From the NCBI GenBank assembly GCA_938040315.1, contig CALHQW010000006.1, forward strand, positions 1,113 through 65,112: 64,000 bases of DNA, given 5' to 3'. Made by a program: the position numbers and the translations under genes. Shown here piece after piece: positions 15,231 to 53,677 of this stretch. The notes beneath the pieces are model-generated. The model made no database searches and had not been told where the DNA came from. It worked only from the letters and a program-made list of their open reading frames with translations. Every line of letters starts with the position of its first letter. Positions within the stretch are counted from its first letter, which is position 1. Origin of the DNA: an uncultured bacterium. GTDB taxonomy: Bacteria; Hydrothermota; Tepidihabitantia; Tepidihabitantales; DTDR01.

Positions 15231-15347
15231 ATACTATTATCGGAAACTGTATAAGAAACGGTTATAGGGTTATCCCTATACCCTAAAAACTTCTTAATTT
15301 ATGAGCACCAATAAATATATCCCTTTCTCCTATTATTAATTATCTTA

Positions 15348-15375
15348 TTGATTTTTATTATTAATATTGTATAAT
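15348..15375 (+). promoter_or_regulatory. Promoter TTGATT -16- TGTATAAT (extended -10) for the 15411 gene
   Basis: Read from the sequence. A GGGAGG SD lies 7 nt before the ATG. Confidence 0.45.
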
Positions 15376-15410
15376 AATAAAGTTATGAAAAAATATAAAG
15401 GGAGGTTATT

Positions 15411-17146: not shown

Positions 17147-17184
17147 GAGGAGAGGCTTAAAAATCGCCTCTCCTCTTTATTTTT
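17147..17184. terminator. Bidirectional rho-independent terminator: perfect 10-bp stem GAGGAGAGGC/GCCTCTCCTC flanked by T-runs, between convergent genes
   Basis: Read from the sequence at 17147-17175, with TTTATTTTT downstream. Confidence 0.7.
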
Positions 17185-18070
17185 AAAATCCTCGATATAA
17201 TCCAAGTTTTTTAGCATAATTGATAACCTCTTCGTATTCTTCCTTTTTAATTCTTCTATTTAATTCTAAATAATGATTTGCTAAATAACAGGGTCGGTAC
17301 TGAAGCATTATATTCACATAAGAATCTTTAGAAATTTCCTTTACAATAAAATCTGAGATTTCAAAAGACCCAGCAATTTTATTTGGCAAAACTAAATGTC
17401 TTATCAATAAACCGCAGTAGGCAATACCATTAACAATTTTTAAATCACCCACTTGGCGATACATTTCTTTTATTGCCTCTTTATTAATTTCTGAATATTT
17501 TTTGGCCTTTGAATATTTTAAACCATATTCGTTATTGCTATATTTCATATCAGGCATATAAATATCAATTATTCCTTCTAAAATTCTTAAAATCTCTACT
17601 TTATCATAACCACCGGAATTATACACAATTGGTAATTTAAGTCCCTTTTCCTTGGCAATAATTAGGGCTTCTAAAATTTGGAAAATTACATGGGTAGGAC
17701 TTACTAAGTTAATATTATGACAGCCCATCCTTTGTAATCTTAACATCATTTCTGCCAGTTCTTCCGGTTTTACTTCCCTTCCTTCTACATATTGGCTAAT
17801 TTCATAATTCTGACAATAGACACAATGGAGATTACAGCCCGAAAAGAAAATCGTTCCTGAACCATTTTCACCAACCAACTCTCTTTCCTCACCAAAATGG
17901 GGTCCAAAACTACTCACAATTGCGTATCGACCAATTTGGCAATCTCCTTTTTCATTATTTAATCTTAAAACATTACATTCTCTGGGACAGATTCTACAAG
18001 GAGAAAAAAATTTTTCTAACTTCTTTAATCTTTCTTCTAAATTAATTTTCAAAAATTTTGGTTGGTACAT
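17183..18070 (-). CDS. Radical SAM protein, PflX-like (pyruvate formate-lyase activating enzyme homologue)
   Basis: CNLHCVYCQN matches the Cx3Cx2C motif. Length and overall similarity fit the COG1313 family. Confidence 0.65.
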   Translation of the reverse strand: MYQPKFLKINLEERLKKLEKFFSPCRICPRECNVLRLNNEKGDCQIGRYAIVSSFGPHFGEERELVGENGSGTIFFSGCNLHCVYCQNYEISQYVEGREVKPEELAEMMLRLQRMGCHNINLVSPTHVIFQILEALIIAKEKGLKLPIVYNSGGYDKVEILRILEGIIDIYMPDMKYSNNEYGLKYSKAKKYSEINKEAIKEMYRQVGDLKIVNGIAYCGLLIRHLVLPNKIAGSFEISDFIVKEISKDSYVNIMLQYRPCYLANHYLELNRRIKKEEYEEVINYAKKLGLYRGF

Positions 18071-31123: not shown

Positions 31124-33961
31124 ATGACTCAAAACAATTATATTTTTATTAAAGGAGCAAGAGAACATAATTTAAAAAATCTTACTTTAAAAATTCCTCG
31201 AAATAAAATGGTAGTTATCACTGGAATTTCTGGTTCAGGAAAGTCTTCTTTGGCTTTTGATACTATTTATGCCGAAGGGCAAAGAAGATATATTGAATCT
31301 CTTTCTTCTTATGCTCGACAGTTTTTGGGAGTATTAGAAAAACCGGATGTTGATCAGATTGAAGGTCTTTCGCCAGCGATTGCTATTGAACAACGAACCG
31401 CAGCCAAAAATCCTCGTTCCACTGTTGGCACCGTTACCGAAATTTATGATTATTTAAGAGTTCTTTTTGCTCGAATTGGTACTCCCTTCTGTCCTTACTG
31501 TAATAAAGAAATTGCTCACCAAACCTTAGACCAAATAATTGATCAAATAACTCTTTATCCTCCAAATACAAAGTTAATAATATTAGCACCAGTAATAAGG
31601 GGAAGAAAGGGAGAATATCAGAACCTTTTAGAAAAAATTAAGAAAAAGGGATTTTTGAGAGTAAGGGTAGATGGGAAAATTTCTGAAATTTCTGAAGTTA
31701 AAAATTTAGAAAGATATAAAAAACATAACATTGAAATCCTTATTGACCGTTTAATTTTAACTAAAGAAAATCAGAAAAGATTAGTTGAATCAGTAGAATT
31801 AGCATTAAAAGAGGGACAAGGGTTATGTGTAGTAATTTTTGATGAAAAAGAGGAAAAAATTTTTTCTGAAAAATTTGCCTGTGTAGACTGTGGTTTTTCC
31901 TATGAAGAAATTTCCCCCAGACTATTTTCTTTTAATTCTCCTTACGGAGCTTGTCCGAGTTGTCATGGATTAGGAACAAAAATGGAAATTGATCCAGAAA
32001 GATTGATTGTTGACCCTAATCTCTCAATTAATGAAGGAGTAATTGAAGTATGGGGTGAACCAAAAGGTAGGTGGTTTACTTCTCTTTTGAAGGCATTAGC
32101 AAAAAATTATAATTTCTCTTTAAACACTCCTTGGAAAAAATTACCGAAGGAAGTAAAAAAAATAATTCTTTATGGTACTAATGAAGAAATTCTTGTGGAA
32201 CATGAAAGATGGGACGGAACTCGTTATCATTTTTATGAAGAATTTGAAGGTGTGATTCCCCATTTAATGCGGATTTATCAAACAACCGAATCAGAAAGTA
32301 CTCGAGAATGGATCGAGCGGTATATGTCAATTTTACCTTGCCCAGAATGTTTGGGAGCTCGGCTTAAAAAAGAAGCCTTATCAATTAAAATTGCTGGTTA
32401 TTCTATTTATGATGTTTGTAAGTTATCTATTAAAGAATGTTATCTTTTCTTTGATAATCTGAAAATGAAGGAACAAGAAAGAAAAATTGCTGGTGAGTTG
32501 ATTAATGAAATTAAAAAACGGTTAAATTTTTTAATTGAAGTTGGTGTTGATTATTTAACTTTGGAAAGAAGAACAGATACTTTAGGTGGCGGTGAAGAAC
32601 AAAGGGTAAGATTAGCCACACAAATTGGTTCAGGTTTGGTCGGTGTTACTTATATTTTAGATGAGCCAAGTATTGGTTTACATATGAGGGATAATCATAA
32701 ATTGATTCAAACATTATTAAAGTTGAGAGATTTAGGAAATACAGTAATTGTGATTGAGCACGATCGCGACACAATTTTAAGTAGTGATTATGTGATTGAT
32801 TTAGGACCGGGTGCTGGTGAAAGAGGTGGTTATGTAGTTGCGATGGGTACACCTTCCGAAATAATGAGAAATCCGAATTCTTTAACCGGAGCTTATTTAA
32901 TAGGTAAAAAAGAAATTCCTTTACCAAAAAAGAGAAGAATCCATCAGGGAAAATTTTTGGTGGTAAAAGGTTGTAGTGAAAATAATTTAAAAAATGTTGA
33001 TATTTCCATACCTTTAGGACTATTTGTCTGTCTTACCGGAGTGTCTGGTTCAGGTAAAAGTACCTTCATGAATGATATTCTTTATAAAGCGTTGGCAGAA
33101 AAGTTTTATGGTTCGAAAGAGAAACCAGGAAAATTTAGAGAGATTATTGGTTGGGAAGAGATTGATAAAGTAATTAATATTGATCAATCACCAATTGGTC
33201 GAACTCCTCGTTCTAATCCGGCAACATATACTAATGTTTTTACACCGATAAGAGAACTTTTTGCTCAGACAAAAGAAGCCAAAATTCGGGGTTATCCTCC
33301 TGGGAGATTTTCTTTTAATGTTCGAGGGGGACGATGTGAAGATTGTGGTGGCGATGGAATAAAAAAAATTGAAATGCATTTTTTGCCAGATGTTTATGTG
33401 ACTTGTGAAGTTTGTAAGGGAAAGAGATATAATCGGGAAACTTTAGAAATAAAATATAAAGGGAAAAATATTTATGAAGTTTTAGAGATGACTGTTAATG
33501 AAGCATTAGAGTTTTTTTATAATATACCACCAATCCGAAGAAAATTGGAGATGTTAAGAGATGTTGGATTGGGTTATATAAAATTAGGACAACCGGCAAC
33601 AACTTTATCGGGTGGCGAAGCGCAAAGAGTAAAATTGGCAAGGGAATTATCCAAAATTGGTACGGGAAGAACTTTGTATCTTTTAGATGAGCCAACTACT
33701 GGTTTGCATTTTGAGGATATTCGGCTCCTTTTGATTGTCCTTAATCGCTTAGTAGATAAAGGAAATACGGTGGTTGTCATTGAACATAACTTAGAAGTGA
33801 TAAAGTGTGCTGACTGGATAATTGATTTAGGACCAGAAGGAGGTGAAAAAGGTGGATATGTTGTTGCTTGTGGTCCTCCCGAAGAGATTGCCAGATGCGA
33901 AAAATCTTATACTGGAAAATTTCTGAGAGAAGTATTAAGAAGGCACGGAGTCAAAATTTAG
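31124..33961 (+). CDS. uvrA: Excinuclease ABC subunit A
   Basis: Two ABC ATPase modules ([32 protein letters not shown] twice) and zinc-finger Cys clusters. 945 aa. Confidence 0.95.
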
Positions 33962-34738
33962 ATATTTTTCACAAATCCTCTCAATTTTTTCTGCTTTATA
34001 AGTAGATAAATTGATTTCTATCAAAACTCCTTCTATTTTAAAATCTGAATCTGCCGGATTAAGACGGTAATTAATTCCGTAGAGAAGTCTTTTTAAAGAG
34101 TCCTCAATTTTCATTCCTAAAACAGAATTTATTGCTCCGCACATTCCCACGTCAGTAATATAGGCAGTTCCTTTTGAGAGAATTTCTTCGTCAGCCGTTG
34201 GAATATGGGTATGGGTTCCTAAGACAGCACTTACTCGGCCATCCAAAAAATATCCCATTGCTTTTTTTTCAGCAGTCGCTTCTGCGTGGAAATCAATAAT
34301 TATAATTCCTTTTTCATTCATTTTTGTTAATTCCTCGTCAATTCTTCGGAAAGGACAGTCTACCGGTTTCATAAATACTCTACCAATAAGATTTATTACT
34401 ATTACTGGTTTTTCTGATTTTTTAGTTAGATAAACACCCTTTCCAGGGGTACCAAAAGGATAATTTAGTGGTCGGATTATATTTTTTTCTTTTTCTAAAT
34501 AAGGGATAATTTCTTTTCGGTCAAAACTATGGTCGCCAAGAGTGATACAGTCAATTCCTAAGGAAAAAAGTTCTTCAGCAATCTTTGGAGTTATTCCAAA
34601 TCCTCCGGCGGAATTTTCACCATTGGCGATAATAAAATCAGGTTGGTATTTATTTTTTAAAATTTTTATTCCTTTGGCGAGCGCTTTTCTTCCTGCTTCG
34701 CCACAAATATCGCCCAAAAAAAGAATTTTATAACCCAT
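33935..34738 (-). CDS. ymdB: YmdB-family metallophosphoesterase (2',3'-cyclic-nucleotide phosphodiesterase, TIGR00282-like)
   Basis: [28 protein letters not shown] and GDHSFD motifs. Overlaps the rny 3' end by 11 nt, as in the Bacillus rny-ymdB pair. Confidence 0.8.
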
Positions 34739-36254
34739 AGATTAAGTTAATTTTGATTTCTCCTAAGAAAGGTAATTCATTTCTTATCCTTTGTTGAAGA
34801 GTTCTTATTAATAAACTTCCCTCTTTTTCATTAATTTTATCTGTATTTAGTAAAATCCGAATTTCTCTTCCTAATTGGAAAGCATAAGCTTTTTTTACTG
34901 AATGCGTTTCTTCACAAAGTTCTTCAATCTTGGTTAACCTTTTGAAAATTTCGTCAAATTTAATTGTTTTACCAGCTCCGTATAAATGAGAAAGGTAATT
35001 AGCCATTGAAATTAAATAACTTTCTGGATAAGAAAAATCAGATGATTGATGGTGATTAGCAATTGCTTGAATTACAATTTCATTTTCGCCAAACCTTTTG
35101 ACAAAATTAGCACCGATTAATTGATGGGGTAAATTTTCTTGGTTAGGAAGAATTTTTCCAATATCATGCAGAAGACCCGCACGTAAAACGTTTATTGGAG
35201 AAAAGCCGAGATTAAGGGCTAAATTTTTACCAATAAGGGCTACTTCTTTAGAATGGGCAAGAAGATTTTGACCATAAGTAACATAAAAATTCATCTCGCC
35301 AATAACTTTTATCAACTCTTTAGGAAAATTTTCAATTCCCAATTCATTACAAGCACTTAAACCAATTTGAAAAGTCTTTTCATCAAACTCCATTAATATT
35401 TTTTGGAAGGTTTTTTCAATAATTTCAGTGGTAATTTCTTCGTTATTCATAATTTCATTAATTAATAATTTAGCGAGCATCCTTCTTTTAGGATGAAAAG
35501 AAAAAATAAAAATCTTCTTTGGAGTATCGTCAATAATAATTTCTGTACCGGTAAGATTTTCAATCAAAAGCACATTTCGCCCTTTCCGACCAATTAATTT
35601 TCCTTTAAACTCTTCATTAGGAATTTCTATCCAGCAAGCCGTATGCTCTTTGGCTGAAGGCAAACCAATTTTTTGGCAGGCTTCTAATATAATTTTTTGA
35701 GCAATAACCTTGACCTCTTCATGGACTTTTTCTTTTATTTTCTTTAATTCTTCAAAATGCTCATCCCAAACTTCTTTTTCAAAAGTTTTTTTTAATTCTT
35801 CTTTTATTTCTTTAATACTTAGGTTAGAGATCTTTAATAATCGGTTTTGATATTCATTTATTAATTTATCAAGATGTTCAATTTTTATTTTATAAACCTT
35901 TTCGGTAGTGAGAAGTTCATTTTCTTTTTTCTGAATACGATTTAACTGAGAAGAATATTCTTTTTCCTTTTTGTGATAAAAACTAATAAGTTCTTCTAAT
36001 TCTTGCTTTTTTTGTGTTAATTCCTTTAATTTTTCTTCATAGATTTTTAAAAATTTTGTTTTTTCTGTTTCTAATTCTTTTTTAATTTCTTCAATTAATT
36101 TTTCTTCTCTTTTTTTATTTTCCTCTTGGAGGTTCTTTTTATACTCATCGAGTTTTTGTTTTTCTTTTTCATATTTTTTCTGCCAAAAATTTTTGGTTAA
36201 TAAATAAGTAAATAAAAAACATAAAAATAATAAAAATAAAAATAAATACTCCAT
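34728..36254 (-). CDS. rny: Ribonuclease Y
   Basis: N-terminal TM segment, long coiled coil, KH domain (GKLIGRKGRNV), and HD domain (LLHDIGK). 508 aa. Confidence 0.85.
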   Translation of the reverse strand: MEYLFLFLLFLCFLFTYLLTKNFWQKKYEKEKQKLDEYKKNLQEENKKREEKLIEEIKKELETEKTKFLKIYEEKLKELTQKKQELEELISFYHKKEKEYSSQLNRIQKKENELLTTEKVYKIKIEHLDKLINEYQNRLLKISNLSIKEIKEELKKTFEKEVWDEHFEELKKIKEKVHEEVKVIAQKIILEACQKIGLPSAKEHTACWIEIPNEEFKGKLIGRKGRNVLLIENLTGTEIIIDDTPKKIFIFSFHPKRRMLAKLLINEIMNNEEITTEIIEKTFQKILMEFDEKTFQIGLSACNELGIENFPKELIKVIGEMNFYVTYGQNLLAHSKEVALIGKNLALNLGFSPINVLRAGLLHDIGKILPNQENLPHQLIGANFVKRFGENEIVIQAIANHHQSSDFSYPESYLISMANYLSHLYGAGKTIKFDEIFKRLTKIEELCEETHSVKKAYAFQLGREIRILLNTDKINEKEGSLLIRTLQQRIRNELPFLGEIKINLIYGL

Positions 36255-39640: not shown

Positions 39641-40804
39641 ATGAGAATAGATTTTTTTACATCTGAATCAGTTACCGAAGGGCATCCGGATAAAATTTGT
39701 GATCAAATCTCTGATGCGGTTTTGGATGAAATTTTAAGACAGGATGAATTTGCTCGGGTTGCCTGCGAAACTTTTGTTACTGTTGGATTAGTGATTGTTG
39801 GTGGTGAGATAACTACTAAGGGATGGGTTGATTTACAAAAAGTTGTAAGAAGTTTGTTAAAAGAAATTGGTTATACAAGCACTAAATATGGTTTATCGGC
39901 TGATAATTGTGCAATATTAAATGCTATTGGTACTCAATCACCGGATATTGCTATTGGTGTTGATCGGGGTGGAGCCGGGGATCAAGGTTTAATGATTGGT
40001 TATGCTATTAACGAAACAAAGGAATATATGCCTTTACCAATTATGTTGGCTCATAAATTAACAAAAAGATTGGCAGAAGTAAGAAAGAAGAAAATTTTGC
40101 CCTATTTAGGGCCTGACGGAAAATCGCAAGTAACAGTTGAATATCGTGATGGTAAGCCAGTGAGGATTGATAGTGTAGTAATTGCTGCTCAGCATACTGA
40201 GGATGTTCTTGATAAAACTGGCGAAAAGATGAGTGAAGAGGCAAAAGAAGAGATTATTGAAAAGGTAATAAAAGCGGTTATTCCGGAAGAATACCTTGAT
40301 AAAAATACTAAATTTTATGTAAATGAAACTGGCAAATTTATTATTGGTGGTCCTCAATCAGATACTGGAATGACCGGAAGGAAAATAATTGTTGATACCT
40401 ATGGTGGTAAAGTAAGGCATGGTGGAGGTGCCTTTTCGGGTAAAGATCCCACAAAAGTTGATAGAAGTGCTTCTTATATGACAAGATATGTAGCAAAAAA
40501 TTTGGTAGCAAGTGGAGTTTGTGAAGAAGTAGAAGTTAGCGTTGCTTATGTTATTGGTCGCCCTGATCCCCTTCATATTAGTTTAAATACTTTTAATACG
40601 GGAAAAGTAAAAGATGAAGTTCTTTTAAAATTGGTAAAAGAGATGTTTGATTTTACACCACGCGGAATGATTGAATATTTAAAACTAAGAAGACCAATTT
40701 ATTTACCAACTGCCTGTTATGGTCATTTTGGTCGGAATGAAGAAAACTTTACCTGGGAGAAATTAGATATGGTAGAGGAAATAAGAAGAAAGTTAGGAAT
40801 TTAA
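39641..40804 (+). CDS. metK: S-adenosylmethionine synthase
   Basis: [37 protein letters not shown]. Confidence 0.95.
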
Positions 40805-40807
40805 AAA

Positions 40808-42064
40808 ATGAAATTTCATATAAAAGATATTAATTTGTCGCCAATCGGTAAAAAACGGGTAGAATGGGCAGGAAAATTTATGCCGGTATTGAAACTAATT
40901 GGCGAGAGATTTGAAAAAGAAAAATCTCTAAAAGGTATAAAAATATCTGCCTGTCTTCACATTACTACCGAAACAGCCAATTTACTTCTTACTTTAAAAA
41001 AGGGAGGAGCCATTATTAGCGTATGTGCTTCTAATCCACTTTCTACCCAAGATGATGTGGCTGCTTATCTTGTTAAAGAAATAGAAATACCAGTGTTTGC
41101 AATTAAAAAGGAAGATAGAAAAACTTATTATAATCATATTCATCAAGTTTTAGAACAAAAACCGCAGATCACAATTGATGACGGTGCTGATTTAGTTTCA
41201 ACTTTACACAAAGAGAGAAATGATTTAATGAGGAATATAATTGGTGGAACCGAGGAAACGACGACTGGAGTTATTCGCTTGAAAAATATGGAAAAAGAAG
41301 GAGTTTTAAAATATCCGATAATTGCCGTAAATGATTCCTATACTAAATATCTTTTTGATAATCGTTATGGAACAGGTCAATCAACAATTGATGGAATTTT
41401 ACGAGCAACAAATTTTCTTTTTGCTGGTTCAACAGTGGTGGTTTGTGGTTATGGTTGGTGTGGTCGCGGTATTGCGATGCGAGCAAAAGGAATGGGAGCT
41501 AAGGTAATAATTTGTGAAATAGATCCAATTAAGGCATTAGAGGCAAAGATGGATGGCTATGAAGTGATGAAATTAACCGAAGCCTCGCAAATTGGCGATT
41601 TATTTATTACTGCTACAGGTAATATTAATGTAATAACCAAAAAGCATTTTCTATTAATGAAAGATGGAGCAATTTTATGCAATGCTGGCCATTTTGATGT
41701 GGAGATTGATAAAAAGGGATTAAAAGAAGTGAGTATTAAAAGAAGAAAGATAAGAGAATTCTGTGAAGAATATTTATTAAAAAATAAGAAGAAGATTTAT
41801 CTTTTAAGTGAAGGAAGATTAGTAAACCTTTCTTCAGCAGAAGGTCATCCAGCAATGGTAATGGATATGTCTTTTGCTAATCAAGCCTTGGCCTGTGAAT
41901 ATTTAGTAAAAAATCACAGTAAATTAGAAAAAAAAGTTTATAAATTGCCTTTAGAAATTGATAAAGAAATTGCTTATTTAAAATTGAAATCAATGGGAAT
42001 AGAAATAGACAGGTTAACAAAAAAACAAAAGAAATATCTTATTTCTTGGCAAGCAGGAACCTAA
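40808..42064 (+). CDS. ahcY: Adenosylhomocysteinase
   Basis: NAD-binding [11 protein letters not shown] and overall SAHH similarity. 3 nt after metK. Confidence 0.9.
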
Positions 42065-43043: not shown

Positions 43044-44789
43044 TTAGTGGTTAATTATCAACTTATATCTTTCAGTTAAAGTGTTGGCCTTTATTGTTAA
43101 GAAGTAAATTCCGTTTCTTAATTCTTTTGAAATTCGGAACTGGTAATTGTGATTACCTTTTGAGAGATTTTTGTCTAATAAGTTCATAACTATTCTACCA
43201 TTAATATCGGTCAAAAAGATATTTACCTTTGTCTCTTTTTCTAAACTAATTGAGAGATAAGCACGATTTCTAATTGGATTAGGATAAACTTTTAAATTAA
43301 ACAACTTATTACCTTTTGTTTCTGCAATACCGGTTTCATCTAAATATCGTCTGGGAACTTGGTGAACAACAAAAGCACAAGTAGCTAAAGAATGTTCACC
43401 TTGGACATAGAAACCAGCAATTGGGTCAATTAAATAGGTAATCCAGCACATATCATCAACAATTGGAGCCAAGAAAGGAAATCTTTTTGAAGTTTGATCA
43501 GGTTCAGTAATTCTTTTTGGTGGCAACCAAGTTAAACCACCATCAGTAGAAGCAGTTCCCCAAATATCGGCTCTTAGACGTTGGGTTTGAGGTTCATAAT
43601 TTACTGGGTCAAATTGTTCCCAAACAACATAAAGATTTCCGTTCTGTAAGTTTTGACCAATAGATGGACGACCAGCAAAAATAGCATTATAACCAACGGT
43701 TGCCGCTAAAGTATCAGGCATAATTCGGCAGATTCTTGTTAATTCAGGATTTCTTCCCGGAACATAATGCCACATTTCTACAGGAATTATTCTACCAGTA
43801 TCTCTTATATTAGGCGTGAAGCAAAGGACGAAGTTTGGTCTATCTTCTCGATCAAAGAAACCACCAACCGAAGGTAACCAAAGTTCAGGTAAAGTTTCGC
43901 TTCCGGGTGTAAAGATTTCAGGAAATGGGAAAGGAATCACATCGCTCCAAGTTTCGCCACCATCAGTAGAAATTCTATAAGCACCGCTATCCGGTCCTGT
44001 GCCATCCCATTCGGTCCAGTAAATCACTACTTTATTACTTATTTTAGAAGCAAAAATTCCTTGGCTATTACCTTGGGGAGCGATTGGTTGTCCAGGTTCA
44101 GGAGCGATTAATACTGGTTCTTCAGGGGTTGGCCAATCTCTCATTCTAATATAAAAAATTCTGTCCCGTGCTTGTCCAGGATCGTCTTCCACAGCAGCAA
44201 CATGGACCCAGCCATTATTTGTAATAGCAATTGGTGGCCAAAGATAGCCTTCTTGACAATCGGCATAATCAAAAATTCCTTGTCCAGGAGCAATATCTTT
44301 TCCAATTCTTGGAATAAAACGTTGAGTTCCTGCTACATGTCCAACAATAAATTCATTTCCTTCCATGGGGTTAACATCAAGATTTCCAAAGCCAGCACGA
44401 GCATTTAATGCATCAATTCCATCTTGACCAAATGCCCAAGACTGGGTAGCGCGGTCATAAAAATTATATCTCATATTTCTATCAGGAAAAGGACTTGCTT
44501 GAAGAGAAGTTATTCCCGTTACGTGAACACCTCTTTGTGGATCATTGTAAATTCTTTGCCATCCATGAGAATTAAATTGCCAGTCATAAGTGGAAAAGAA
44601 CACCGTATCTACTCTGCCAATAGGTTGCCAAGAAGAAAAAGAATTTCTTTCTTTAATTATTTTTGTTTCCTTTATTTTAGGAAGGTCGGCTTTAAGTTCG
44701 GGCGGAAGGGTTTTTATTGGGATAAGATATTCTTTGGGAAGAGCAAAAATAATTAATAAAGGAATAAAAAAGATTACTAATTTACGCAT
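43044..44789 (-). CDS. Secreted BNR/Asp-box repeat (sialidase-like beta-propeller) protein with a T9SS C-terminal sorting domain
   Basis: Signal peptide. Asp-boxes STDGGETWS and STDGGLTW. C-terminal NIFLTDINGRIV...NGIYFLTIKA...LIINH is a T9SS CTD. Confidence 0.65.
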   Translation of the reverse strand: MRKLVIFFIPLLIIFALPKEYLIPIKTLPPELKADLPKIKETKIIKERNSFSSWQPIGRVDTVFFSTYDWQFNSHGWQRIYNDPQRGVHVTGITSLQASPFPDRNMRYNFYDRATQSWAFGQDGIDALNARAGFGNLDVNPMEGNEFIVGHVAGTQRFIPRIGKDIAPGQGIFDYADCQEGYLWPPIAITNNGWVHVAAVEDDPGQARDRIFYIRMRDWPTPEEPVLIAPEPGQPIAPQGNSQGIFASKISNKVVIYWTEWDGTGPDSGAYRISTDGGETWSDVIPFPFPEIFTPGSETLPELWLPSVGGFFDREDRPNFVLCFTPNIRDTGRIIPVEMWHYVPGRNPELTRICRIMPDTLAATVGYNAIFAGRPSIGQNLQNGNLYVVWEQFDPVNYEPQTQRLRADIWGTASTDGGLTWLPPKRITEPDQTSKRFPFLAPIVDDMCWITYLIDPIAGFYVQGEHSLATCAFVVHQVPRRYLDETGIAETKGNKLFNLKVYPNPIRNRAYLSISLEKETKVNIFLTDINGRIVMNLLDKNLSKGNHNYQFRISKELRNGIYFLTIKANTLTERYKLIINH

Positions 44790-44804
44790 TTTTTTCCTCC
44801 TTTT

Positions 44805-46637
44805 CTAATTTATTATTATTTTTTTCTTATATATTTTATTTCCATCATCAAAAAGGCAGAAATAAGTGCCTTTTCTACCTTTAGTATTCCAGGTTAATTT
44901 ATAATTTCCTTTTTCTTTTCTTTTATTTTCTAAAATTTCCACCATTTTGCCACTAATGTCAAAAATGGCAATTGTTATTGATGAAGATTGAGATAACGAG
45001 TAAGTAATATTTACCTTTTTACTTGTTGGATTAGGGAAAATAGAAAAATTAGTTTTTGGAGAATATTTATTATTCTCTTGTGCAATACCAACTTCAACAA
45101 GCAATGTACAAGGAACTCGGAAATAAAGAACTGGATTATTAGTGACTACTCCTTCATTTTGTGGAACACCACCGGCATCTTTGTCATTAATATAAGTAAT
45201 ATGCAGATAACCACCAACAGCAAAAGGCGCTAAGGAAAAATAATCGTCGTCTTCACACATTCCTGGAGAAGCACCCGGACTTGGAGAATTTGTAAGATTT
45301 AATACTTCGCCAATTCGTCCTTTTACTCCCCAGGTTCTTCCGCCATCAGTAGAAACTGCTGCATATAATTCACCATTTATTCTTCTTCCTTGAGAAATGT
45401 CAGTAGTATCTAAATTACCGACCCAAACACAATAAAGATTACCATAATTATCAATTGCTAATTGTGGTCGGTCAGCCGGTCTTCGCCAAGCATCGTTCTG
45501 AACATTAGGATAAGGCGAATACCACCAAGAATCTCCAACTACTTGTAAATGTCCGATACCAGATACCAAAGTTATTCCGGTTTGTTCGCTCCAATGTCTA
45601 ATTCTTGAAAAACCAGGATAAGTCGCTGGTCCTCGGCTACCAACCATTGATAGGATTTCTGTCCATACTACATGTAAATTGCCATTCAAATCGTAAATGG
45701 CATCACAATCTGCATAGGCAAATTCGTGGGGTAAGGTATCGGTTGGATATTGATAATTTGTAATTTGTCTTGGCGGTTGCCAAGTAGCACCTCGGTCATA
45801 GGATTCTCTTATCCAAACATTTTGTAAAACTTGTGAATGTCTTTCTGGTAAATTAGAGGTATAAGCAACGACAACTTTGTCTCCATCAGGTTGAGCATAT
45901 ATATCACCAGAAAGGCATGCCATTACCGTGTCATTCATTATTGGCATCCAGTTACTAAAAGTATTGCCACCATCGGTGGAACGAGAGTAATAGAAATCTT
46001 CAGAAGCACCAGCAGTTGGTGGTCTTCCATATCCTAACACATGAATAATTCCATTATTGCCAATAGTTCCGTGAGGCCAGATAATTTCATTTCCATAAGG
46101 AGAAAGATTTACATCCGGCTCAATGGGATCGCCAAATATTCCAGTTTGAGGAGCAATTTCAATTGTTAAAGCCGAATAAAATACACCTTCTCTTGAATGA
46201 TGGAAAAAGCAACAAGCCTTTCCATCAGGAAACATTCCAAAAGTTACATAACCTGCCCGATACATACCACTTGCTTGGACACCCATTCCTAATTGGACAG
46301 TATCATCAAAATAAGCATTATAATAACAATAACGATTCGGATAAGAAGGATTTGAATCAGGAGAGTGCATCCAATCAAATCCCCAAGTATTATTGGCAAA
46401 TTCTATTCTTGAGCCAAGGGTGCCGTTAGATTGATAATCAATAAAAGTTCGAGAAAGAAGAATTCCAGGAGAAGTGGTAAAGGTAGGAGAAATGTTAACT
46501 GGTAAAGAGATTTTTTCTAAACCAGTAGAAAGGGGAAGAGGAGAATAAAGTTGTTGATGTTTAGGACTCAAAAATTCACTTTTTGGTAAAGAAAATAAAA
46601 AAGAGATTAAAAAGATAAAAATACTCATTTTTTTCAT
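44805..46637 (-). CDS. Secreted BNR/Asp-box repeat protein with a T9SS C-terminal sorting domain (paralogue of the downstream gene)
   Basis: Asp-boxes SRSTDGGNTFS, SYDRGATWQ, STDGGRTWG. C-terminal ITIAIFDISGKMV...GTYFCLFDD...KIIIN is a T9SS CTD. Confidence 0.65.
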   Translation of the reverse strand: MKKMSIFIFLISFLFSLPKSEFLSPKHQQLYSPLPLSTGLEKISLPVNISPTFTTSPGILLSRTFIDYQSNGTLGSRIEFANNTWGFDWMHSPDSNPSYPNRYCYYNAYFDDTVQLGMGVQASGMYRAGYVTFGMFPDGKACCFFHHSREGVFYSALTIEIAPQTGIFGDPIEPDVNLSPYGNEIIWPHGTIGNNGIIHVLGYGRPPTAGASEDFYYSRSTDGGNTFSNWMPIMNDTVMACLSGDIYAQPDGDKVVVAYTSNLPERHSQVLQNVWIRESYDRGATWQPPRQITNYQYPTDTLPHEFAYADCDAIYDLNGNLHVVWTEILSMVGSRGPATYPGFSRIRHWSEQTGITLVSGIGHLQVVGDSWWYSPYPNVQNDAWRRPADRPQLAIDNYGNLYCVWVGNLDTTDISQGRRINGELYAAVSTDGGRTWGVKGRIGEVLNLTNSPSPGASPGMCEDDDYFSLAPFAVGGYLHITYINDKDAGGVPQNEGVVTNNPVLYFRVPCTLLVEVGIAQENNKYSPKTNFSIFPNPTSKKVNITYSLSQSSSITIAIFDISGKMVEILENKRKEKGNYKLTWNTKGRKGTYFCLFDDGNKIYKKKIIIN

Positions 46638-48711: not shown

Positions 48712-48776
48712 TTTTCCTCCTTATTTTTTGTTTCATTTACTTAAATATAAATAAAAATAATAAAAAGTCAATAAAA

Positions 48777-50270
48777 TTAAATTTCTTCCAAAAATTTATA
48801 TTCGTCATATTTAAATTTGGAATTTATTTTTAATTCCAGATGAACTTCGATTTTTTTAATAAGTTGAGTTAATCTTTCATTCCATTCATTTGTTAGGAAC
48901 TCATAAAGATAGGGCGAGACTAATAAAAGAATTTTTTTCCCCTTTAATCTTTCTGCTTTATTTATTAATTCATTTTCAATTTTTAAACAAACTTCATATC
49001 GGTCTAAAATTCTTCCTCTTCCTTTACAAGCAGGACATTCTTCACAAAGAGTAAAAAATATACCTGGCCTAATTTTTTCTCGTGTCATTTCCACTAATCC
49101 AAAACGGCTTAGTTTACCAAAATCGGCTTTTGCCCGGTCATTGGTTAAACATAATTTTAATTCTTGATATACTCGTTCTCGATTTTTTAACTCTCGCATA
49201 TCAATAAAGTCAATAATAATTAAACCGGATAAATCTCGTAATCTAATTTGCCGAGCAATTTCTGCTGCGGCTTCTAAATTTGTTTGCAAGATTAATGTTT
49301 CTGGGTCTTCCTCCGATGCAAAACTACCGGTGTTTACATCAATAGTAACGAGTGCCTCTGTTTGATCAATAGTGATAAATCCACCGCTTTTTAAGGGAAT
49401 TTCTCGTTCCAATGCTTTTTCTAATTCTTCATCAATTTTAAATTTTTTAAAAAGAGGTTCCTTTTCTTCATAAAGAATAATTTTGTCCTTATCAAATAAT
49501 TCGGGAGTATAATTTTTTATATAATTGTTTATTTCATAATAAAGATTTCGATCATCCACATAAATGGCTTCGGTATCCAGAGTGTATAAATCCCGAATAA
49601 TTTTTAATGCTAATTTGGGTTCTTTATAAAGCAGTCGGGGAGCCCGAGATTTTTGAAATTCCCTTTCAATTTCTTCCCATTTACCTTCTAAATAATGATA
49701 ATCCCTGACAATTACTTCTTCCGGCATGTTTTCCGCAGCGGTCCTAATAATTAATCCCCGATTTGCTTTTTTTAATTTCTTTGCAATCTCTTTTAAACGA
49801 TTTCTTTCTTTTCGGTTAGCAATTCTTTGAGACACACCGATTCGGGAAATCGTGGGGAAAAAAACCACATATTTCCCTGGTAAATGAATAAAAGAAGTTA
49901 ATCGGGCACCTTTGTCACCGAATTGCTCTTTAACAACTTGACAAAAAATTTGGTCACCAATACTTATTGGTAATTCTTCTTTTTTTATTTTCCTTACTTT
50001 TTCGTCTTCCTCCTCTAAATCAATTCCAAATATTTCTTCAGGTATTTCGGCTAAAGGTAAAAATCCGTTTTTTCTTAAACCGATGTTTACAAAGGCTCCC
50101 CGTAATCCCTTTACAATATTTTCCACCCGTCCTTTAAAAATTTTTCCTACATTATTTTCAATTCCCTCCCGCTCAATATAAAACTCTACTAAACGATCGT
50201 TTTCCAAAATTGCTATCCGCGTATCATTAAATTTATGAGTGATCACAATGATAGTTTTAAATTTAATCAT
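48777..50270 (-). CDS. rng: Ribonuclease E/G family protein (RNase G-like)
   Basis: S1 domain and an RNase E/G catalytic core. 497 aa, which is RNase G size. Confidence 0.8.
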   Translation of the reverse strand: MIKFKTIIVITHKFNDTRIAILENDRLVEFYIEREGIENNVGKIFKGRVENIVKGLRGAFVNIGLRKNGFLPLAEIPEEIFGIDLEEEDEKVRKIKKEELPISIGDQIFCQVVKEQFGDKGARLTSFIHLPGKYVVFFPTISRIGVSQRIANRKERNRLKEIAKKLKKANRGLIIRTAAENMPEEVIVRDYHYLEGKWEEIEREFQKSRAPRLLYKEPKLALKIIRDLYTLDTEAIYVDDRNLYYEINNYIKNYTPELFDKDKIILYEEKEPLFKKFKIDEELEKALEREIPLKSGGFITIDQTEALVTIDVNTGSFASEEDPETLILQTNLEAAAEIARQIRLRDLSGLIIIDFIDMRELKNRERVYQELKLCLTNDRAKADFGKLSRFGLVEMTREKIRPGIFFTLCEECPACKGRGRILDRYEVCLKIENELINKAERLKGKKILLLVSPYLYEFLTNEWNERLTQLIKKIEVHLELKINSKFKYDEYKFLEEI

Positions 50271-52626
50271 CTTCCAAAGGAGTTATCAATTTATCATTTT
50301 TTATTAAATATTGTTCAATTCTTTTGATTAGTAGTAATTTTACAATTTCTTCTTCTAATCCTAAAATTTTGGTGAGAGTAGGATAGAGTTTTACTCCCGA
50401 CTGAAAAGGTAAAAGAATTTCTCCTACATTATCATAAAGTCGAAAATAATAAGAAGTAGTATTTAAATTTATTTTTTTAATAATTGAATCTGGGAAAAAA
50501 ATTTCGTATTTCAAAAATTTAATAGATTTTCCTAAACTTGGTTTATCCCTTTTTATTTCTTTAAAATCAATAACTATTAAATCTTTGGGCATAAAATTGC
50601 CTAACTCTTTTATTAAATTACCATTATAATCAATTTTTAAAAAAATGTCAAAATATTCACTTTCCGAGATGACTCCAACGGGTAAAGGAGGACCAAAAGA
50701 AATTAAATATCGGGGTGAAAACCCTCCTGAATGAATCACTGGTAAGCAAGCGCGCCTGACAGTTCGATAAATTGCTCGAACAATATCTAAATGGGAAGCA
50801 AAGCGAAAGTTTTCTCCTACTTTAAATTTTACTCGGACCCTTTTATAAATGGGATAAAAAGCCGGTTGTTTTTTAAAAGAGGGAAGTTTTTTAGAGAAAA
50901 AATTCTCTTTTTTGGCAAATTTAAGAGAATCAAAATTTTCTATTTCCTGATTAGATAAAGCTTTTTGATAATTTTCAATAAAAAAATTCTTTGGTATGCC
51001 TACATCAATAAATTCCCAAGGTAAATTTCCTTTTAGGTTTTTTTCTTTTAAGTAATTTTCTTTATCAATTTGATTTTTAGAAAAACTATCTAACCAAAGT
51101 TGATATTGAAAGTGTTCAGTCCAGTCTTGAAAGATTCCTTGGCTTTTAAATACTTCTTCAATAATTAACGACAGTTTTTCATCACCCCTTGCTAAAATTG
51201 CTTGAATTTCTGCTTGGTCTAGATTTTCATATTTTATTCGAATATTTTTAAATTTTACTAAATTTTTTAATGTTCTAATTTTTTCTAAAAGGATGGTTTT
51301 ATCCTCAAAACTGCAAAATTGAAAAGGGGTATGAGGTTTGGGAATAAAAGGAGAGATAGAAATTCGCAACTCTTTACTTTTAATGTTCTTACCTAAAAAA
51401 TTTAAAAAATAAGCAATCTCTTTTATATCTTCTTCTTTCTCAGTTGGCAAGCCAATCATAAAATAAAATTTGATTCCTTGCCAGTTATTATTTATTAAAT
51501 TTTCTACGGCTTGAATAATCTTTTCATTAGAAATTTCTTTGTTGATAACTTTTTTTAAACGGGAAGAGATGGTTTCGGGAGCAAAAGTAATTCCTGTTTT
51601 TTTGATTAATCCAAGTTGGTTTACAATATCTTCATCAAAATCTTCGCCGCGTAATGAAGGCAAAGAAAGAGCAACTAAATAGGGATTTAAAATTTCGTTT
51701 AAAGAACTTAAAAGCAAAGATAAATTAGGATAATCACCTGCGGAAAAGGAAAGCAGAGAAAGTTCTTCATAACCCGTAGCCTTTATTGCCCTTAAAGCTA
51801 GTCTTTTAATTTCTTCAACTGGACGAATTCTTACCGGCCGATTAATAAATCCTGCTTGACAAAAACGACATCCCCGGCCACAGCCACGGGAAATTTCAAT
51901 AGTTAAATGGTCATGAACGATTTCGCATATTGGTACTAAAGGTGGAAAAGGAAAATCCTCTTCTTTTAATTCTTTTACATATCTTTTTTTTATAATTTTT
52001 TCTTTTTTATGAATTAATGGAACATACACACCTTCTAAATTTGCTAAATTTTCTAATATTGCCTTTTTATTATTTTTGAAATTACGATAAATTTCAACAA
52101 TTTCTAAAATCACTTCTTCACCATCTCCAATAACAAAAGCATCGATAAATGGTGCCATTGGTAGAGGGTTAACCGTACAAGGTCCGCCAGCAATAATCAA
52201 TGGGTAATTGCTGTTAATCCGCTCTTCGGTGCGGAGAGGTATTTTGCCTAAAGAGAGACAATATAAAACATTAGGATAATTTAATTCCGATTGTAAAGAA
52301 AAACCAATAATATCGAATTTAAATAAAGGAAGTTTATTTTCTAAAGAGAAGAGCGGTAAATTATACTCTTTTAATTTTTTGCCAAAATCAATAGCAGGTG
52401 CGTAACTTCTTTCACAAATAGTATTCTTATGACGATTTAATTTTGAATAAAGAATTTTTAATCCATAATTAGACATGCCAATTTCATAAATTTCCGGAAA
52501 AATTAGACATACCTTAATGGTATTTTTTTTTATTGGAAGGGGAAAAAGGTTATATTCGCCGCCAGTATATCTAATAGGTTTTGTTACAAGCGGCAAAAAA
52601 TTTAAAAAAAATTTATTCACCTTCAA
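50263..52626 (-). CDS. B12-binding-domain radical SAM protein (TIGR03960-like) fused to a C-terminal DUF2344 (TIGR03936-like) domain
   Basis: N-terminal LVTKPIRYTGGEYN, a radical-SAM cysteine triad CGRGCRFCQAGF, and an approx. 200-aa C-terminal extension. 787 aa. 8-nt overlap with rng and 14-nt overlap with hypA. Confidence 0.7.
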   Translation of the reverse strand: MKVNKFFLNFLPLVTKPIRYTGGEYNLFPLPIKKNTIKVCLIFPEIYEIGMSNYGLKILYSKLNRHKNTICERSYAPAIDFGKKLKEYNLPLFSLENKLPLFKFDIIGFSLQSELNYPNVLYCLSLGKIPLRTEERINSNYPLIIAGGPCTVNPLPMAPFIDAFVIGDGEEVILEIVEIYRNFKNNKKAILENLANLEGVYVPLIHKKEKIIKKRYVKELKEEDFPFPPLVPICEIVHDHLTIEISRGCGRGCRFCQAGFINRPVRIRPVEEIKRLALRAIKATGYEELSLLSFSAGDYPNLSLLLSSLNEILNPYLVALSLPSLRGEDFDEDIVNQLGLIKKTGITFAPETISSRLKKVINKEISNEKIIQAVENLINNNWQGIKFYFMIGLPTEKEEDIKEIAYFLNFLGKNIKSKELRISISPFIPKPHTPFQFCSFEDKTILLEKIRTLKNLVKFKNIRIKYENLDQAEIQAILARGDEKLSLIIEEVFKSQGIFQDWTEHFQYQLWLDSFSKNQIDKENYLKEKNLKGNLPWEFIDVGIPKNFFIENYQKALSNQEIENFDSLKFAKKENFFSKKLPSFKKQPAFYPIYKRVRVKFKVGENFRFASHLDIVRAIYRTVRRACLPVIHSGGFSPRYLISFGPPLPVGVISESEYFDIFLKIDYNGNLIKELGNFMPKDLIVIDFKEIKRDKPSLGKSIKFLKYEIFFPDSIIKKINLNTTSYYFRLYDNVGEILLPFQSGVKLYPTLTKILGLEEEIVKLLLIKRIEQYLIKNDKLITPLEDD

Positions 52627-52957
52627 TACTTTCTAAATAATAATCGTCACCCTTTTTCAAAAAAATTTTAAAGGAAAAACATTTTGGACACATATAAGGA
52701 AATTCTAAATTTCCTTCCCCATAATAACCACAATTTTTACATTCAATTTCTGGTTTTTCTTCAATAGTGACTATTTGGTTATTCTCGGCTAAAGTATCTT
52801 TTAACCCCTCTTTTAACCAAAAAACAAACTGTTCTTTATTGATTAATGTTAAACTACCAATTTTTATATTTATTTTATAAATTTTCTTAATCTGATATTT
52901 TTTACAAACTTGATAAATTACTTTAATAAGATGCTGGGCACAGGAGAATTCATGCAT
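52613..52957 (-). CDS. hypA: Hydrogenase/urease nickel-incorporation protein HypA
   Basis: N-terminal MHE nickel-binding motif and a zinc finger CKNCG...CPKC. 114 aa. Confidence 0.75.
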   Translation of the reverse strand: MHEFSCAQHLIKVIYQVCKKYQIKKIYKINIKIGSLTLINKEQFVFWLKEGLKDTLAENNQIVTIEEKPEIECKNCGYYGEGNLEFPYMCPKCFSFKIFLKKGDDYYLESIEGE

Positions 52958-53621
52958 TTTTTAAAAAATTTATTATCTTTTCTACCCCTTTGCCTTTACG
53001 AGCAACTGTTTCTATAATAGGAATAAAAGGTTTAATTTTTTTGATATCTCTTTTTAATTTAGTCAAAGAAACTTTCATATTTTTTGCTAAATCTATTTTA
53101 TTAATAACAACCATATTAGCCTCTTTGAAAATATAAGGATGTTTTATCACTACGTAAGGACCTTCGGTACAAGAAAAGACGACAATTCGATAATGAGCAC
53201 CCAAAGGAAATTCTCCGGGACAAATAAGATTACCCACATTTTCAATAAAAAGCAAATCAATCTCTTTTAAAGGCAGATTTTTTATTGCCTCGCTTACTAA
53301 TTTAGCATCCAAATGACATTCTTTTCCGGTATTAATCTGGATTACTTGGGCACCATTTTTTTTAATTAGGTCAGCATCAATGGTGGTAGTTAAATCACCA
53401 GTAATTACTCCGATTCTATAATCCTTTTTCAATTTTTTAACAATCTGGCACATTAATGTTGTTTTTCCGCTTCCAATTGAACCAAGAATATCAATTGCTT
53501 TTATATCGTATTGATTGAAAATTTTTTTATTTTCTTCTGCCAGTTCTCTATTTTTTTTAAGCAGACTTTCTTCTAATTCAATATCAAATATTTCACCACT
53601 TTTTGGTTTAATAATTTTCAT
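52950..53621 (-). CDS. hypB: Hydrogenase nickel-incorporation GTPase HypB
   Basis: P-loop GSIGSGKTTLM and an ENVGNLICP motif. No His-rich N-terminus. Confidence 0.8.
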   Translation of the reverse strand: MKIIKPKSGEIFDIELEESLLKKNRELAEENKKIFNQYDIKAIDILGSIGSGKTTLMCQIVKKLKKDYRIGVITGDLTTTIDADLIKKNGAQVIQINTGKECHLDAKLVSEAIKNLPLKEIDLLFIENVGNLICPGEFPLGAHYRIVVFSCTEGPYVVIKHPYIFKEANMVVINKIDLAKNMKVSLTKLKRDIKKIKPFIPIIETVARKGKGVEKIINFLKNA

Positions 53622-53641
53622 AATTAAATTTTAATCACAAA

Positions 53642-53670
53642 TTGACTTTTTTCAATAATAAAATTATAAT
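53642..53670 (+). promoter_or_regulatory. Sigma70 consensus promoter TTGACT -17- TATAAT. The -10 ends 7 nt before the nnr ATG, so a leaderless transcript is predicted.
   Basis: Read from the sequence. Confidence 0.5.
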
Positions 53671-53677
53671 TTGGTAA

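Follow-up and report, generated by a model that had tools for sequence, protein, structure and literature searches.

The minus strand of the window (the whole 64-kb stretch of DNA that was analyzed) carries four open reading frames in a row: hypB, hypA, a gene for a radical-SAM fusion protein (rSAM), and rng. These genes, the domains of the fusion protein, and the promoter-like sites are as follows.

53628-53655, minus strand: promoter-like site upstream of hypB, TTGAAA-16 nt-TAAAAT (10/12 in a consensus scan)
52950-53621, minus strand: hypB, 223 aa, nickel-insertion GTPase of the G3E family
52613-52957, minus strand: hypA, 114 aa, nickel metallochaperone
50263-52626, minus strand: TIGR03960::TIGR03936/DUF2344 radical-SAM fusion, 787 aa from a TTG start, 785 aa from the GTG at 52620
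52018-52464, minus strand: Radical_SAM_N2, a B12-binding-like Rossmann-type domain of the fusion (residues 55-203; PF19864, 180 bits)
51412-51900, minus strand: radical-SAM core of the fusion (residues 243-405; PF04055, 71 bits) with the cluster motif CGRGCRFC (CX3CX2C)
50878-50928, minus strand: shortened, disordered linker of the fusion, with the Cys motif of relatives deleted (pLDDT <50 at residues 565-581)
50266-50874, minus strand: DUF2344/TIGR03936 domain of the fusion (residues 585-787), modeled with a TruA/Pus1/Pus3-like fold (AF2 pLDDT 93.3)
50623-50651, minus strand: candidate internal rng promoter within the DUF2344 coding region, TTGACA-17-TATAAT (12/12 to the sigma-70 consensus)
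48777-50270, minus strand: rng, 497 aa, Rne/Rng-family ribonuclease of RNase G size
48744-48771, minus strand: promoter-like site in the 65-nt gap past rng, TTGACT-16-TATATT (10/12 in a consensus scan)

Each gene of the string overlaps the next, by the 8, 14 and 8 nt that the first-pass annotation had reported. hypB and hypA share 8 nt (ATGCATGA), as do the rSAM gene and rng (ATGATTAA). The middle overlap is 14 nt when counted from the farthest TTG start and 8 nt with the GTG start of the 785-aa NCBI product. In two relatives from the same genus (L002 and L011) the rSAM gene starts 2 nt past the end of hypA, and these genes do not overlap. The genome is compact, with 30% GC, and gene overlap is the norm in the window rather than something special to hypBA-rSAM-rng: 16 of the 42 same-strand neighbor pairs overlap, functionally unrelated pairs among them, and a further 11 are spaced by 0-5 nt.

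TIGRFAM and Pfam profile matches bear out the identities assigned to all four products. HypB scores 263 bits on TIGR00073 (cutoff 121) and also matches PF02492. Its translation contains a Walker A motif (GSIGSGKTT), the ECH metal motif, NLICP and NKID, and its N-terminus has neither CXXCGC nor a His-rich tract. HypA matches PF01155 (76 bits, cutoff 29) and falls slightly short of the cutoff on TIGR00100 (83.2 bits, cutoff 88.1); its nickel site is an MHE sequence at the N-terminus, and it also has a zinc site of the form CxxC-x13-CxxC. HypB shares 60-66% identity with its counterparts from other phyla; within the genus, identities are 80-87% for HypB and 72-82% for HypA. Judged by sequence, the two proteins are orthodox, with intact metal and GTPase motifs and without new domains. 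The ribonuclease scores 474 bits on the Rne/Rng model TIGR00757 (cutoff 326) and 331 bits on PF10150, and is under the cutoff of the RNase G equivalog PRK11712 (406, cutoff 594). Its translation contains an S1 domain, the catalytic aspartates of IDVN and DFIDM, and a CPACKGRG zinc-link.

The fusion protein scores 551 bits on TIGR03960 (cutoff 462) and 112 bits on TIGR03936 (cutoff 72), the latter over profile positions 1-119 of 209 only, and matches PF19864, PF04055 and PF10105 in Pfam. The full-length AF2 model has a pLDDT of 86.8, and the best PDB fold matches of its rSAM part are MgmA, TokK, CysS, MiaB and RimO (E 5e-15 to 2e-8). In common with MgmA/TokK/CysS and MiaB/MtaB/RimO, the protein has an N-terminal Rossmann-like domain followed by a CX3CX2C radical-SAM barrel. 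However, its scores are far under the cutoffs of the class-B methylases and of the MiaB/MtaB/RimO families, and it has a PUS-like C-terminal domain where MiaB and RimO have TRAM. In the model, the Radical_SAM_N2 domain resembles cobalamin-dependent rSAM enzymes and MiaB-type enzymes in fold, and cobalamin binding is only putative. Across 66 homologues, the cluster cysteines C247, C251 and C254 do not vary. The homologue alignment contains no conserved Cys in the N-terminal domain, and therefore no MiaB-type auxiliary cluster is expected there. The TIGR03960/TIGR03936 family is large (6606 clusters at 50% identity, E<=1e-3), and we found no experiment or paper in the literature that defines its substrate.

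Compared to other TIGR03960/TIGR03936 pairs, the two parts are fused here, as in all WOR-3. What separates the window from other fused relatives is the pair of nickel-chaperone genes that precedes the fusion and a linker without their invariant Cys motif. That motif, C-x5-C-x2-C-x2-C(P), is present at the linker position in all relatives from outside the genus and deleted within it; three linker Cys occur in 100% of 59 such relatives and in 0% of seven sequences from the genus. The clade that gained hypBA upstream is also the clade that lost this motif, a coincidence that the reading favored below does not account for.

The DUF2344 domain most closely resembles pseudouridine synthases. In a Foldseek search of the PDB, the 23 best matches to the model all belong to the TruA family of pseudouridine synthases; for the TruA/Pus1/Pus3 matches, E is 1e-6 to 1e-4, the probability 1.0 and TMq 0.5-0.6. 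Pfam likewise assigns DUF2344 to clan CL0649, the clan of TruA/Pus1/Pus3 (PMC7955657). There is no detectable similarity to TruA by sequence (hhalign probability <1%), which prevented the mapping of a catalytic Asp, and none was identified in the domain. DUF2344 is also shorter than TruA (~200 aa vs ~250-270 aa) and, unlike TruA/Pus1/Pus3, always has a radical-SAM enzyme as its partner. Its invariant residues include several arginines (R596, R615, R767) along with H610 and Y618, and these would fit nucleic-acid binding. We presume from the modeled fold that DUF2344 is an RNA-binding module.

The neighborhood of these genes in relatives separates the string into two parts. In WOR-3, the gene immediately after rSAM/DUF2344 is rng in 71/71 loci. 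Among unrelated metagenome loci with an unfused DUF2344, which range from 24 to 68% GC, 58/63 and 66/70 have the order rSAM, DUF2344, Rng, and in 10 of these loci rplU comes after Rng. Thus the linkage of rSAM/DUF2344 to RNase E/G, described initially as recurrent, is near-universal. HypA and HypB are a different matter. Apart from the window itself, they lie within 10 kb of rSAM-rng in only 4/80 WOR-3 species loci; all four share 76-87% identity with the window and complete synteny between nnr and exbB. The adjacency is absent from the other 76 WOR-3 loci and from 80/80 unfused-family loci, and in relatives at 45-51% identity the upstream position is taken by other genes (fusA, a surA-like gene, xerC). 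The only widely conserved pair is therefore the rSAM/PUS-like enzyme and RNase G, and hypBA adjacency is restricted to one genus-level, hot-spring WOR-3 clade. Among the findings that the annotation had named as counting against its reading are an ordinary rSAM-rng context in relatives and an adjacency unique to this genome. The ordinary context is what we see; the adjacency extends beyond one genome, to that single clade. hypBA has been kept upstream of the rSAM gene under purifying selection in at least five species-level genomes. However, the clade is syntenic over the full stretch between nnr and the T9SS cargo genes, and at so short a divergence the retention of hypBA carries no functional signal.

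We favor, at a probability of roughly 0.65, the interpretation that the string consists of two unrelated modules, an RNA-directed rSAM::DUF2344-rng pair and passenger hypBA, brought together in a compact, low-GC genome of a hot-spring WOR-3 bacterium. hypB and hypA would have arrived just upstream in the ancestor of the genus-level clade and are most likely accidental neighbors of rSAM-rng. The 8-nt overlaps would then reflect genome compaction and translation by termination-reinitiation, and not a common pathway. The PUS-like fold of DUF2344, together with the likeness of the N-terminal part to class-B rSAM methylases and MiaB, points to RNA, and not a metallocenter, as the substrate of rSAM::DUF2344. 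We postulate that structured RNA, a precursor of rRNA or tRNA, binds to the PUS-like domain, which brings one of its nucleotides to the active site of the radical-SAM part; that active site resembles those of class-B methylases and MiaB/RimO. The modification could be coordinated with processing by RNase G as ribosomes or RNAs mature. The annotation had proposed either an RNA-processing or a metallocenter-assembly substrate. The former is favored by the fold and by the conserved rng/rplU neighborhood, and the latter loses its clue, since hypBA is confined to one clade.

A substrate that is itself a protein (RNase G, for example, or L21/L27), with the PUS-like domain as a docking or scaffold module, seems unlikely to us. 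The structural relatives do include MgmA, which acts on methyl-coenzyme M reductase, and RimO, which acts on ribosomal protein S12; rplU often follows rng; and PUS-fold assembly factors without catalytic function occur among the Foldseek matches, in the trypanosome mt-SSU assemblosome (6sga, 9hny). However, tRNA-acting MiaB matches equally well, every top PDB match uses the pseudouridine-synthase fold for RNA binding and catalysis, and the invariant residues named above fit nucleic-acid binding. Far less probable is that the rSAM::PUS-like/RNase G system of this genus has taken on HypB and HypA as functional partners, making the four genes a true pathway operon in which HypAB, for instance, deliver or hold metal to make up for the Cys cluster missing from the linker, or metallate the RNase G zinc-link. 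Overlapping genes with one conserved upstream promoter-like site in common, an arrangement maintained across several species, Cys loss in the hypBA clade only, and a 64-kb window with no nickel enzyme would all agree with recruitment. Against it are the rarity of the adjacency, the synteny of the entire region, the orthodox HypB and HypA, and the commonness of overlaps between unrelated genes. In addition, the homologue alignment contains no compact genus-specific Cys/His motif in the rSAM protein, and hypBA gain and Cys loss amount to one coincident event on one branch.

Pfam scans of 54 ORFs detected no hydrogenase, urease, CODH or hypCDEF gene in the 64 kb, in agreement with the earlier statement that hydrogenase and urease structural genes are missing, and UreE/G genes are absent from the window as well. 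The likeliest client of HypBA is not the rSAM enzyme but a nickel enzyme whose gene lies elsewhere, probably a [NiFe]-hydrogenase. HypAB go with a [NiFe]-hydrogenase in most organisms, and the score and motifs of HypB are those of the hydrogenase equivalog. A Syntrophaceae-type locus (L090) encodes a HypB 65% identical to that of the window, in the same B-then-A order and with GTPase, CH...C, MHE and CxxC motifs intact. There the cassette abuts hypE-hypD-hypC-hypF-hycI and genes for the [NiFe] large and small subunits, whereas in the window it runs into rSAM-rng. HypA and HypB of Helicobacter pylori serve urease as well as hydrogenase, a precedent for nickel delivery to another client; unlike the H. 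pylori proteins, HypAB of the window have no evident client. Orphan chaperones in a hydrogenase-free genome, acting on another nickel client or in storage or homeostasis and unrelated to rSAM-rng, are a doubtful alternative given the hydrogenase-type HypB. Two related organisms do have hypB-hypA without a nearby hydrogenase (none within 10 kb in L088; none in the 10 kb upstream in L089, where the contig ends right past hypB). NiFe hydrogenases are reported to be widespread in WOR-3 but are not universal, with mvhADG and hdrABC in only 34/181 MAGs (PMC12542636). At least one WOR-3 MAG of that survey is scored as having hypA and hypB but lacking hypC, hypD and mvhA, which MAG incompleteness could explain (PMC12542636).

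The promoter-like sites suggest how the region could be transcribed. Upstream of hypB, the -10 hexamer ends 6 nt ahead of the ATG and there is no Shine-Dalgarno sequence, and therefore the hypB mRNA may be leaderless. hypBA would be co-transcribed from this short putative promoter, and the intergenic sequence that contains it is nearly identical in four genus relatives (L008-L011). The candidate internal promoter lies ~350 nt upstream of rng; both of its hexamers are invariant in L001 and L008-L011, a conservation inseparable from coding constraint. Past rng, exbB has a strong ribosome-binding site (AAGGAGG) downstream of the third site. Pfam identifies ExbB, ExbD and TonB beyond it, and the third site is probably where a separate exbB-exbD-exbD-tonB unit begins.

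The locus belongs to a known triad of uncharacterised function and is an ordinary example of it. The triad consists of a radical-SAM (rSAM) enzyme, a DUF2344 domain and an Rne/Rng ribonuclease, and here it is accompanied by a lineage-specific cassette, hypB-hypA, that is probably a passenger. The features that bear on this reading are the following.

53622-53677, 56 nt: divergent hypB/nnr intergenic region with two overlapping, back-to-back promoter-like sites
52950-53621, minus strand: hypB, 223 aa
52613-52957, minus strand: hypA, 114 aa
50263-52626, minus strand: rSAM fusion (TIGR03960 fused to TIGR03936/DUF2344), 787 aa
50878-50928, minus strand: Cys-less linker of the rSAM fusion, placed by alignment
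50623-50651, minus strand: sigma-70 consensus TTGACA-17-TATAAT, 12/12 matches, inside the DUF2344 coding region
48777-50270, minus strand: rng, Rne/Rng ribonuclease, 497 aa

The four minus-strand open reading frames had been placed exactly by the first-pass annotation, and profile scans uphold their family identities. The overlaps that it described between neighboring genes of the string are also real when checked in the sequence. hypB and hypA overlap by ATGCATGA, and the rSAM gene and rng overlap by ATGATTAA. hypA and the rSAM gene overlap by 14 nt if the farthest TTG start is used and 8 nt with the GTG start, which yields the 785-aa product in the NCBI protein record (P0001). However, such overlaps are a habit of the genome and not a sign of common function. 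The window is ~30% GC and its genes are densely packed: 16 of the 42 same-strand neighbor pairs overlap and another 11 are spaced 0-5 nt apart. Unrelated genes overlap too (nnr and an unknown ORF by 8 nt, thrS and infC by 17 nt), and in two relatives from the same genus-level clade (L002 and L011) hypA ends 2 nt ahead of the rSAM start.

The nearest proteins carry the annotation candidate division WOR-3, and hot springs are the source of the related MAGs. In one survey, WOR-3 hot-spring MAGs of low GC (29-30%) belong to Hydrothermia/Hydrothermaceae (PMC12542636). Two loci of the window's own clade (L001 and L002; rSAM fusion 77-100% identical) keep the order nnr, hypB, hypA, rSAM, rng, exbB entire, and their synteny continues via tonB and type IX secretion (T9SS) cargo genes up to ahcY. 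Relatives whose rSAM protein is 45-51% identical retain rSAM-rng, with xerC, fusA or a surA-like gene upstream and no hyp genes. We sampled 80 WOR-3/Stahlbacteria loci, one genome per GTDB species, identifying genes by local phmmer with the window proteins. Rng immediately follows the fusion in 71 of the 71 loci with sufficient downstream DNA. HypA/HypB lie inside 10 kb in only four of the 80, all from one clade; these are the four loci closest to the window (76-87% identity), with none at 53%-76% identity.

To sample outside the phylum, we searched with the DUF2344 domain against 1.84 billion cluster representatives and found 6606 clusters (50% identity) at E<=1e-3, in stand-alone (~200-260 aa) and fused (~800-900 aa) forms. 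A 33-sequence alignment of stand-alone members was too diverse for locus scanning, and a six-sequence subset was used instead to fetch 80 metagenome loci (gut, termite and bioreactor; GC 24-68%). A TIGR03960-like rSAM gene is directly upstream of the stand-alone gene in 58/63 of these loci and Rng is directly downstream in 66/70, with rplU next in 10; HypA/HypB occur in none of the 80. Thus, the conserved unit is rSAM, DUF2344 and Rng, sometimes followed by rplU, whereas hypBA is an addition confined to one clade. The recurrent adjacency of rSAM/DUF2344 to RNase E/G that had been stated at first pass is therefore borne out in both fused and unfused loci. The hypB-hypA-rSAM-rng order is not conserved across the divergent lineages of the two samples.

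Judged from their sequences, HypB and HypA of the window are orthodox proteins. The whole HypB protein matches the curated equivalog TIGR00073 at 263.2 bits (cutoff 121.2), and its translation contains GSIGSGKTT (Walker A), ECH, NLICP and NKID, the marks of a G3E GTPase with a Cys-His...Cys metal site; an N-terminal CXXCGC or His tract is absent from it. HypA matches PF01155 at 76.4 bits (cutoff 28.9) and TIGR00100 at 83.2 bits, slightly below the cutoff of 88.1. It begins with MHEFS, providing the Met-His-Glu nickel site, and has the zinc site C73-x2-C76...C90-x2-C93 (CxxC-x13-CxxC). HypB is 60-66% identical to HypB of Syntrophaceae, Poribacteria and other WOR-3. Within the genus, identity to the window is 80-87% for HypB, 72-82% for HypA, 76-87% for the rSAM protein, 79-85% for Nnr and 91-94% for Rng, and the values for HypB and HypA indicate ordinary purifying selection.

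Outside the genus, the hypB-hypA cassette is found in varied company. In L090, a locus of Syntrophaceae/Thermodesulfobacteriota type, it adjoins hypE-hypD-hypC-hypF-hycI and the genes for the [NiFe] large and small subunits; the 120 HypF matches listed with L090 as query are all relatives of that locus at 75-100% identity. In L088 it is isolated among unrelated neighbors, as it is in L089 within the contig's extent. The cassette is therefore a small movable module that often lies apart from its client. In the window hypB precedes hypA (52613-53621), and the order is the same in L088 (9876-10899) and L090 (7332-8380), the two nearest out-of-genus loci examined with both genes. The order in E. 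coli is the opposite, hypA-hypB.

The absence of hydrogenase and urease structural genes noted at first pass holds: none of the 54 ORFs scanned with Pfam across the 64-kb window is a hydrogenase, urease, CODH or hypCDEF gene. An Rfam scan of the window returned two tRNAs only, with no NiCo riboswitch, cobalamin riboswitch or leader RNA. NiFe hydrogenases are reported to be widespread in WOR-3, although mvhADG with hdrABC was found in only 34 of 181 WOR-3 MAGs (PMC12542636). A tie of hypBA to the ExbB-ExbD-TonB genes downstream, as in TonB-dependent nickel uptake, was also considered. We rejected this idea on two grounds: exbB is likewise adjacent in this genus alone, and it has a promoter-like site and a ribosome-binding site to itself. 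Both sites, the latter a strong AAGGAGG, lie in the 65-nt gap before exbB, and exbB-exbD-exbD-tonB is therefore probably a separate unit.

In the divergent hypB/nnr region, each -10 hexamer ends 6-7 nt ahead of an ATG, a Shine-Dalgarno sequence is missing from both genes, and relatives carry an almost identical sequence. This placement and near-invariance suggest that the hypB and nnr mRNAs could be leaderless. The 12/12 sigma-70 site within the DUF2344 coding region lies ~350 nt upstream of rng, and five genus genomes show no change in either of its hexamers. It could serve rng as an internal promoter, or may just reflect coding constraint. A terminator scan gave no convincing site at the junctions of the four genes or past rng.

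The rSAM fusion scores 550.6 bits against TIGR03960 (cutoff 462.3) and also matches PF19864 (Radical_SAM_N2), PF04055 and PF10105. Its CX3CX2C motif is CGRGCRFC, and C247, C251 and C254 are invariant among the aligned homologues. An AlphaFold2 model of the full-length protein (pLDDT 86.8) has disordered linker residues 565-581. The first ~560 residues of the model match the cobalamin-dependent rSAM methylases MgmA, TokK and CysS, as well as MiaB, MtaB and RimO. By fold the N-terminal part resembles cobalamin-dependent enzymes, with putative B12-type binding. A PDB sequence search with the fusion found distant rSAM cores only and no solved structure of the family, and a literature search found no functional study for DUF2344, TIGR03960, TIGR03936, PF10105, PF19864 or "radical SAM-linked protein".

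The DUF2344 domain is fused to TIGR03960, the pairing expected of TIGR03936, and scores 111.8 bits against that profile (cutoff 71.9), the match covering just positions 1-119 of 209. AlphaFold2, given 65 homologues, models residues 585-787 with a mean pLDDT of 93.3. The top 23 Foldseek matches of this model in the PDB are all the pseudouridine synthases TruA, Pus1 or Pus3, several of them tRNA-bound (E 1e-6 to 5e-4, probability 1.0, TMq 0.5-0.6), and others are pseudouridine-synthase-fold assembly factors for a mitochondrial small ribosomal subunit. The predicted structure is that of a pseudouridine-synthase fold (clan CL0649), in agreement with Pfam, which puts DUF2344 in the PseudoU_synth clan (PMC7955657). 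When the DUF2344 profile was compared with E. coli TruA by hhalign, no alignment reached significance, and the catalytic Asp is therefore not mappable. H610, D612, R615, Y618, E655, Y656, D658 and R767 are all invariant in WOR-3 homologues; most of these eight positions are invariant or nearly so in stand-alone members, D658 being nearly invariant. Together these residues look like a putative active site or binding site.

Where the rSAM part joins the pseudouridine-synthase-like domain, the linker is peculiar to the genus. All 59 aligned relatives outside it carry C-x5-C-x2-C-x2-C(P) there, with three of the Cys 100% conserved, and this motif is probably an auxiliary metal site, Fe-S or Zn. 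In the seven genus sequences, from the window and its six nearest relatives, the linker is shorter and these Cys are all absent. The motif of the WOR-3-type fusion has thus been deleted from the window protein, and the alignment contains no compact compensating Cys/His motif in the genus rSAM proteins.

The best inference is that the fusion acts on RNA, perhaps an rRNA or tRNA precursor. This reading draws on the combination of a B12-like domain, an rSAM barrel and a pseudouridine-synthase-like domain, on the fixed RNase G neighbor and on the recurring rplU. We postulate that the pseudouridine-synthase-like domain would dock the RNA and present a base to the rSAM enzyme. A protein substrate is less likely but possible, since two structural matches of the fusion, MgmA and RimO, modify proteins. 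The first-pass annotation, noting the coupling to HypA/HypB, had proposed that the rSAM enzyme may act on a substrate in RNA processing or in metallocentre assembly. The RNA-processing half of that proposal is strengthened by our results. The nickel-coupled half is left unsupported because the hypBA adjacency is limited to one genus-level clade and overlaps are routine in this genome.

There is one reading under which the nickel chaperones would matter. A single branch combines the loss of the linker Cys with the gain of hypBA upstream, and on this basis it could be argued that the genus fusion lost a four-Cys metal site and gained hypB-hypA as translationally coupled upstream partners, so that the metal of the RNA-modifying enzyme or of RNase G would be supplied or held by HypA/HypB. 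HypA, itself a Zn/Ni CxxC protein, is invoked in this argument. If true, it would reveal a new, non-hydrogenase, RNA-linked client of the Hyp nickel chaperones. We consider it very unlikely; the two changes are indistinguishable from coincidence because they amount to one event on one long branch. The coupling of nickel chaperones to the rSAM gene most likely arose by an accident of gene order in one lineage, and therefore teaches little about either of them.

Of more lasting value are the rSAM/DUF2344 family itself and its Cys-less variant. The family joins a class-B/MiaB-like rSAM enzyme to a pseudouridine-synthase fold, is very widespread (>6000 clusters at 50% identity) and lies directly upstream of an RNase G-type nuclease in nearly every sampled genome. 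It is a testable candidate for a new RNA modification linked to processing by RNase G or to the maturation of ribosomes. Whether the enzyme needs the linker metal site is a question for which the Cys-less variant provides a natural experiment.

The nuclease matches TIGR00757 at 474.4 bits (cutoff 325.95), as well as PF10150, PF00575 and PF20833. Its translation contains IDVN, DFIDM and the zinc-link CPACKGRG, and both S1 and catalytic domains are present. Its score against PRK11712, the E. coli-type RNase G equivalog, is 406 bits, below the required 594, and the safe name is therefore Rne/Rng family, RNase G-sized. RNase Y and YmdB are encoded as an overlapping pair at 33935-36254 (minus strand), so RNase Y coexists in this organism with an enzyme of RNase G type.

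Several other genes in the window deserve mention. A second, small radical-SAM gene lies at 17183-18070 (minus strand). metK-ahcY, for SAM synthesis and SAH hydrolysis, is at 39641-42064 (plus strand), ~7 kb downstream of rng and past exbB-tonB and the T9SS genes. At least four large secreted proteins, one with Kelch repeats, carry a T9SS C-terminal sorting domain (Por_Secre_tail; 12887-17123 and 43044-46637), and similar cargo genes flank the stand-alone hypB-hypA of L088 and L089. A Mut7-C RNase-domain ORF (10290-10775, plus strand) overlaps an opposite-strand tRNA gene (10739-10826) by ~37 nt. At 10869-12814 (plus strand) is a DUF2229/HGD-D protein pair with a 4-nt overlap, relatives of the 2-hydroxyacyl-CoA dehydratase/activase family. 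The ThyX ORF (26503-27882, plus strand; 459 aa) has two Thy1 matches and is ~2x the usual length, a duplicated or tandem flavin-dependent thymidylate synthase. A histidine-kinase-type ATPase protein and a response regulator-PglZ (alkaline-phosphatase-like) fusion follow at 27818-30585 (plus strand), overlapping by 4 nt.
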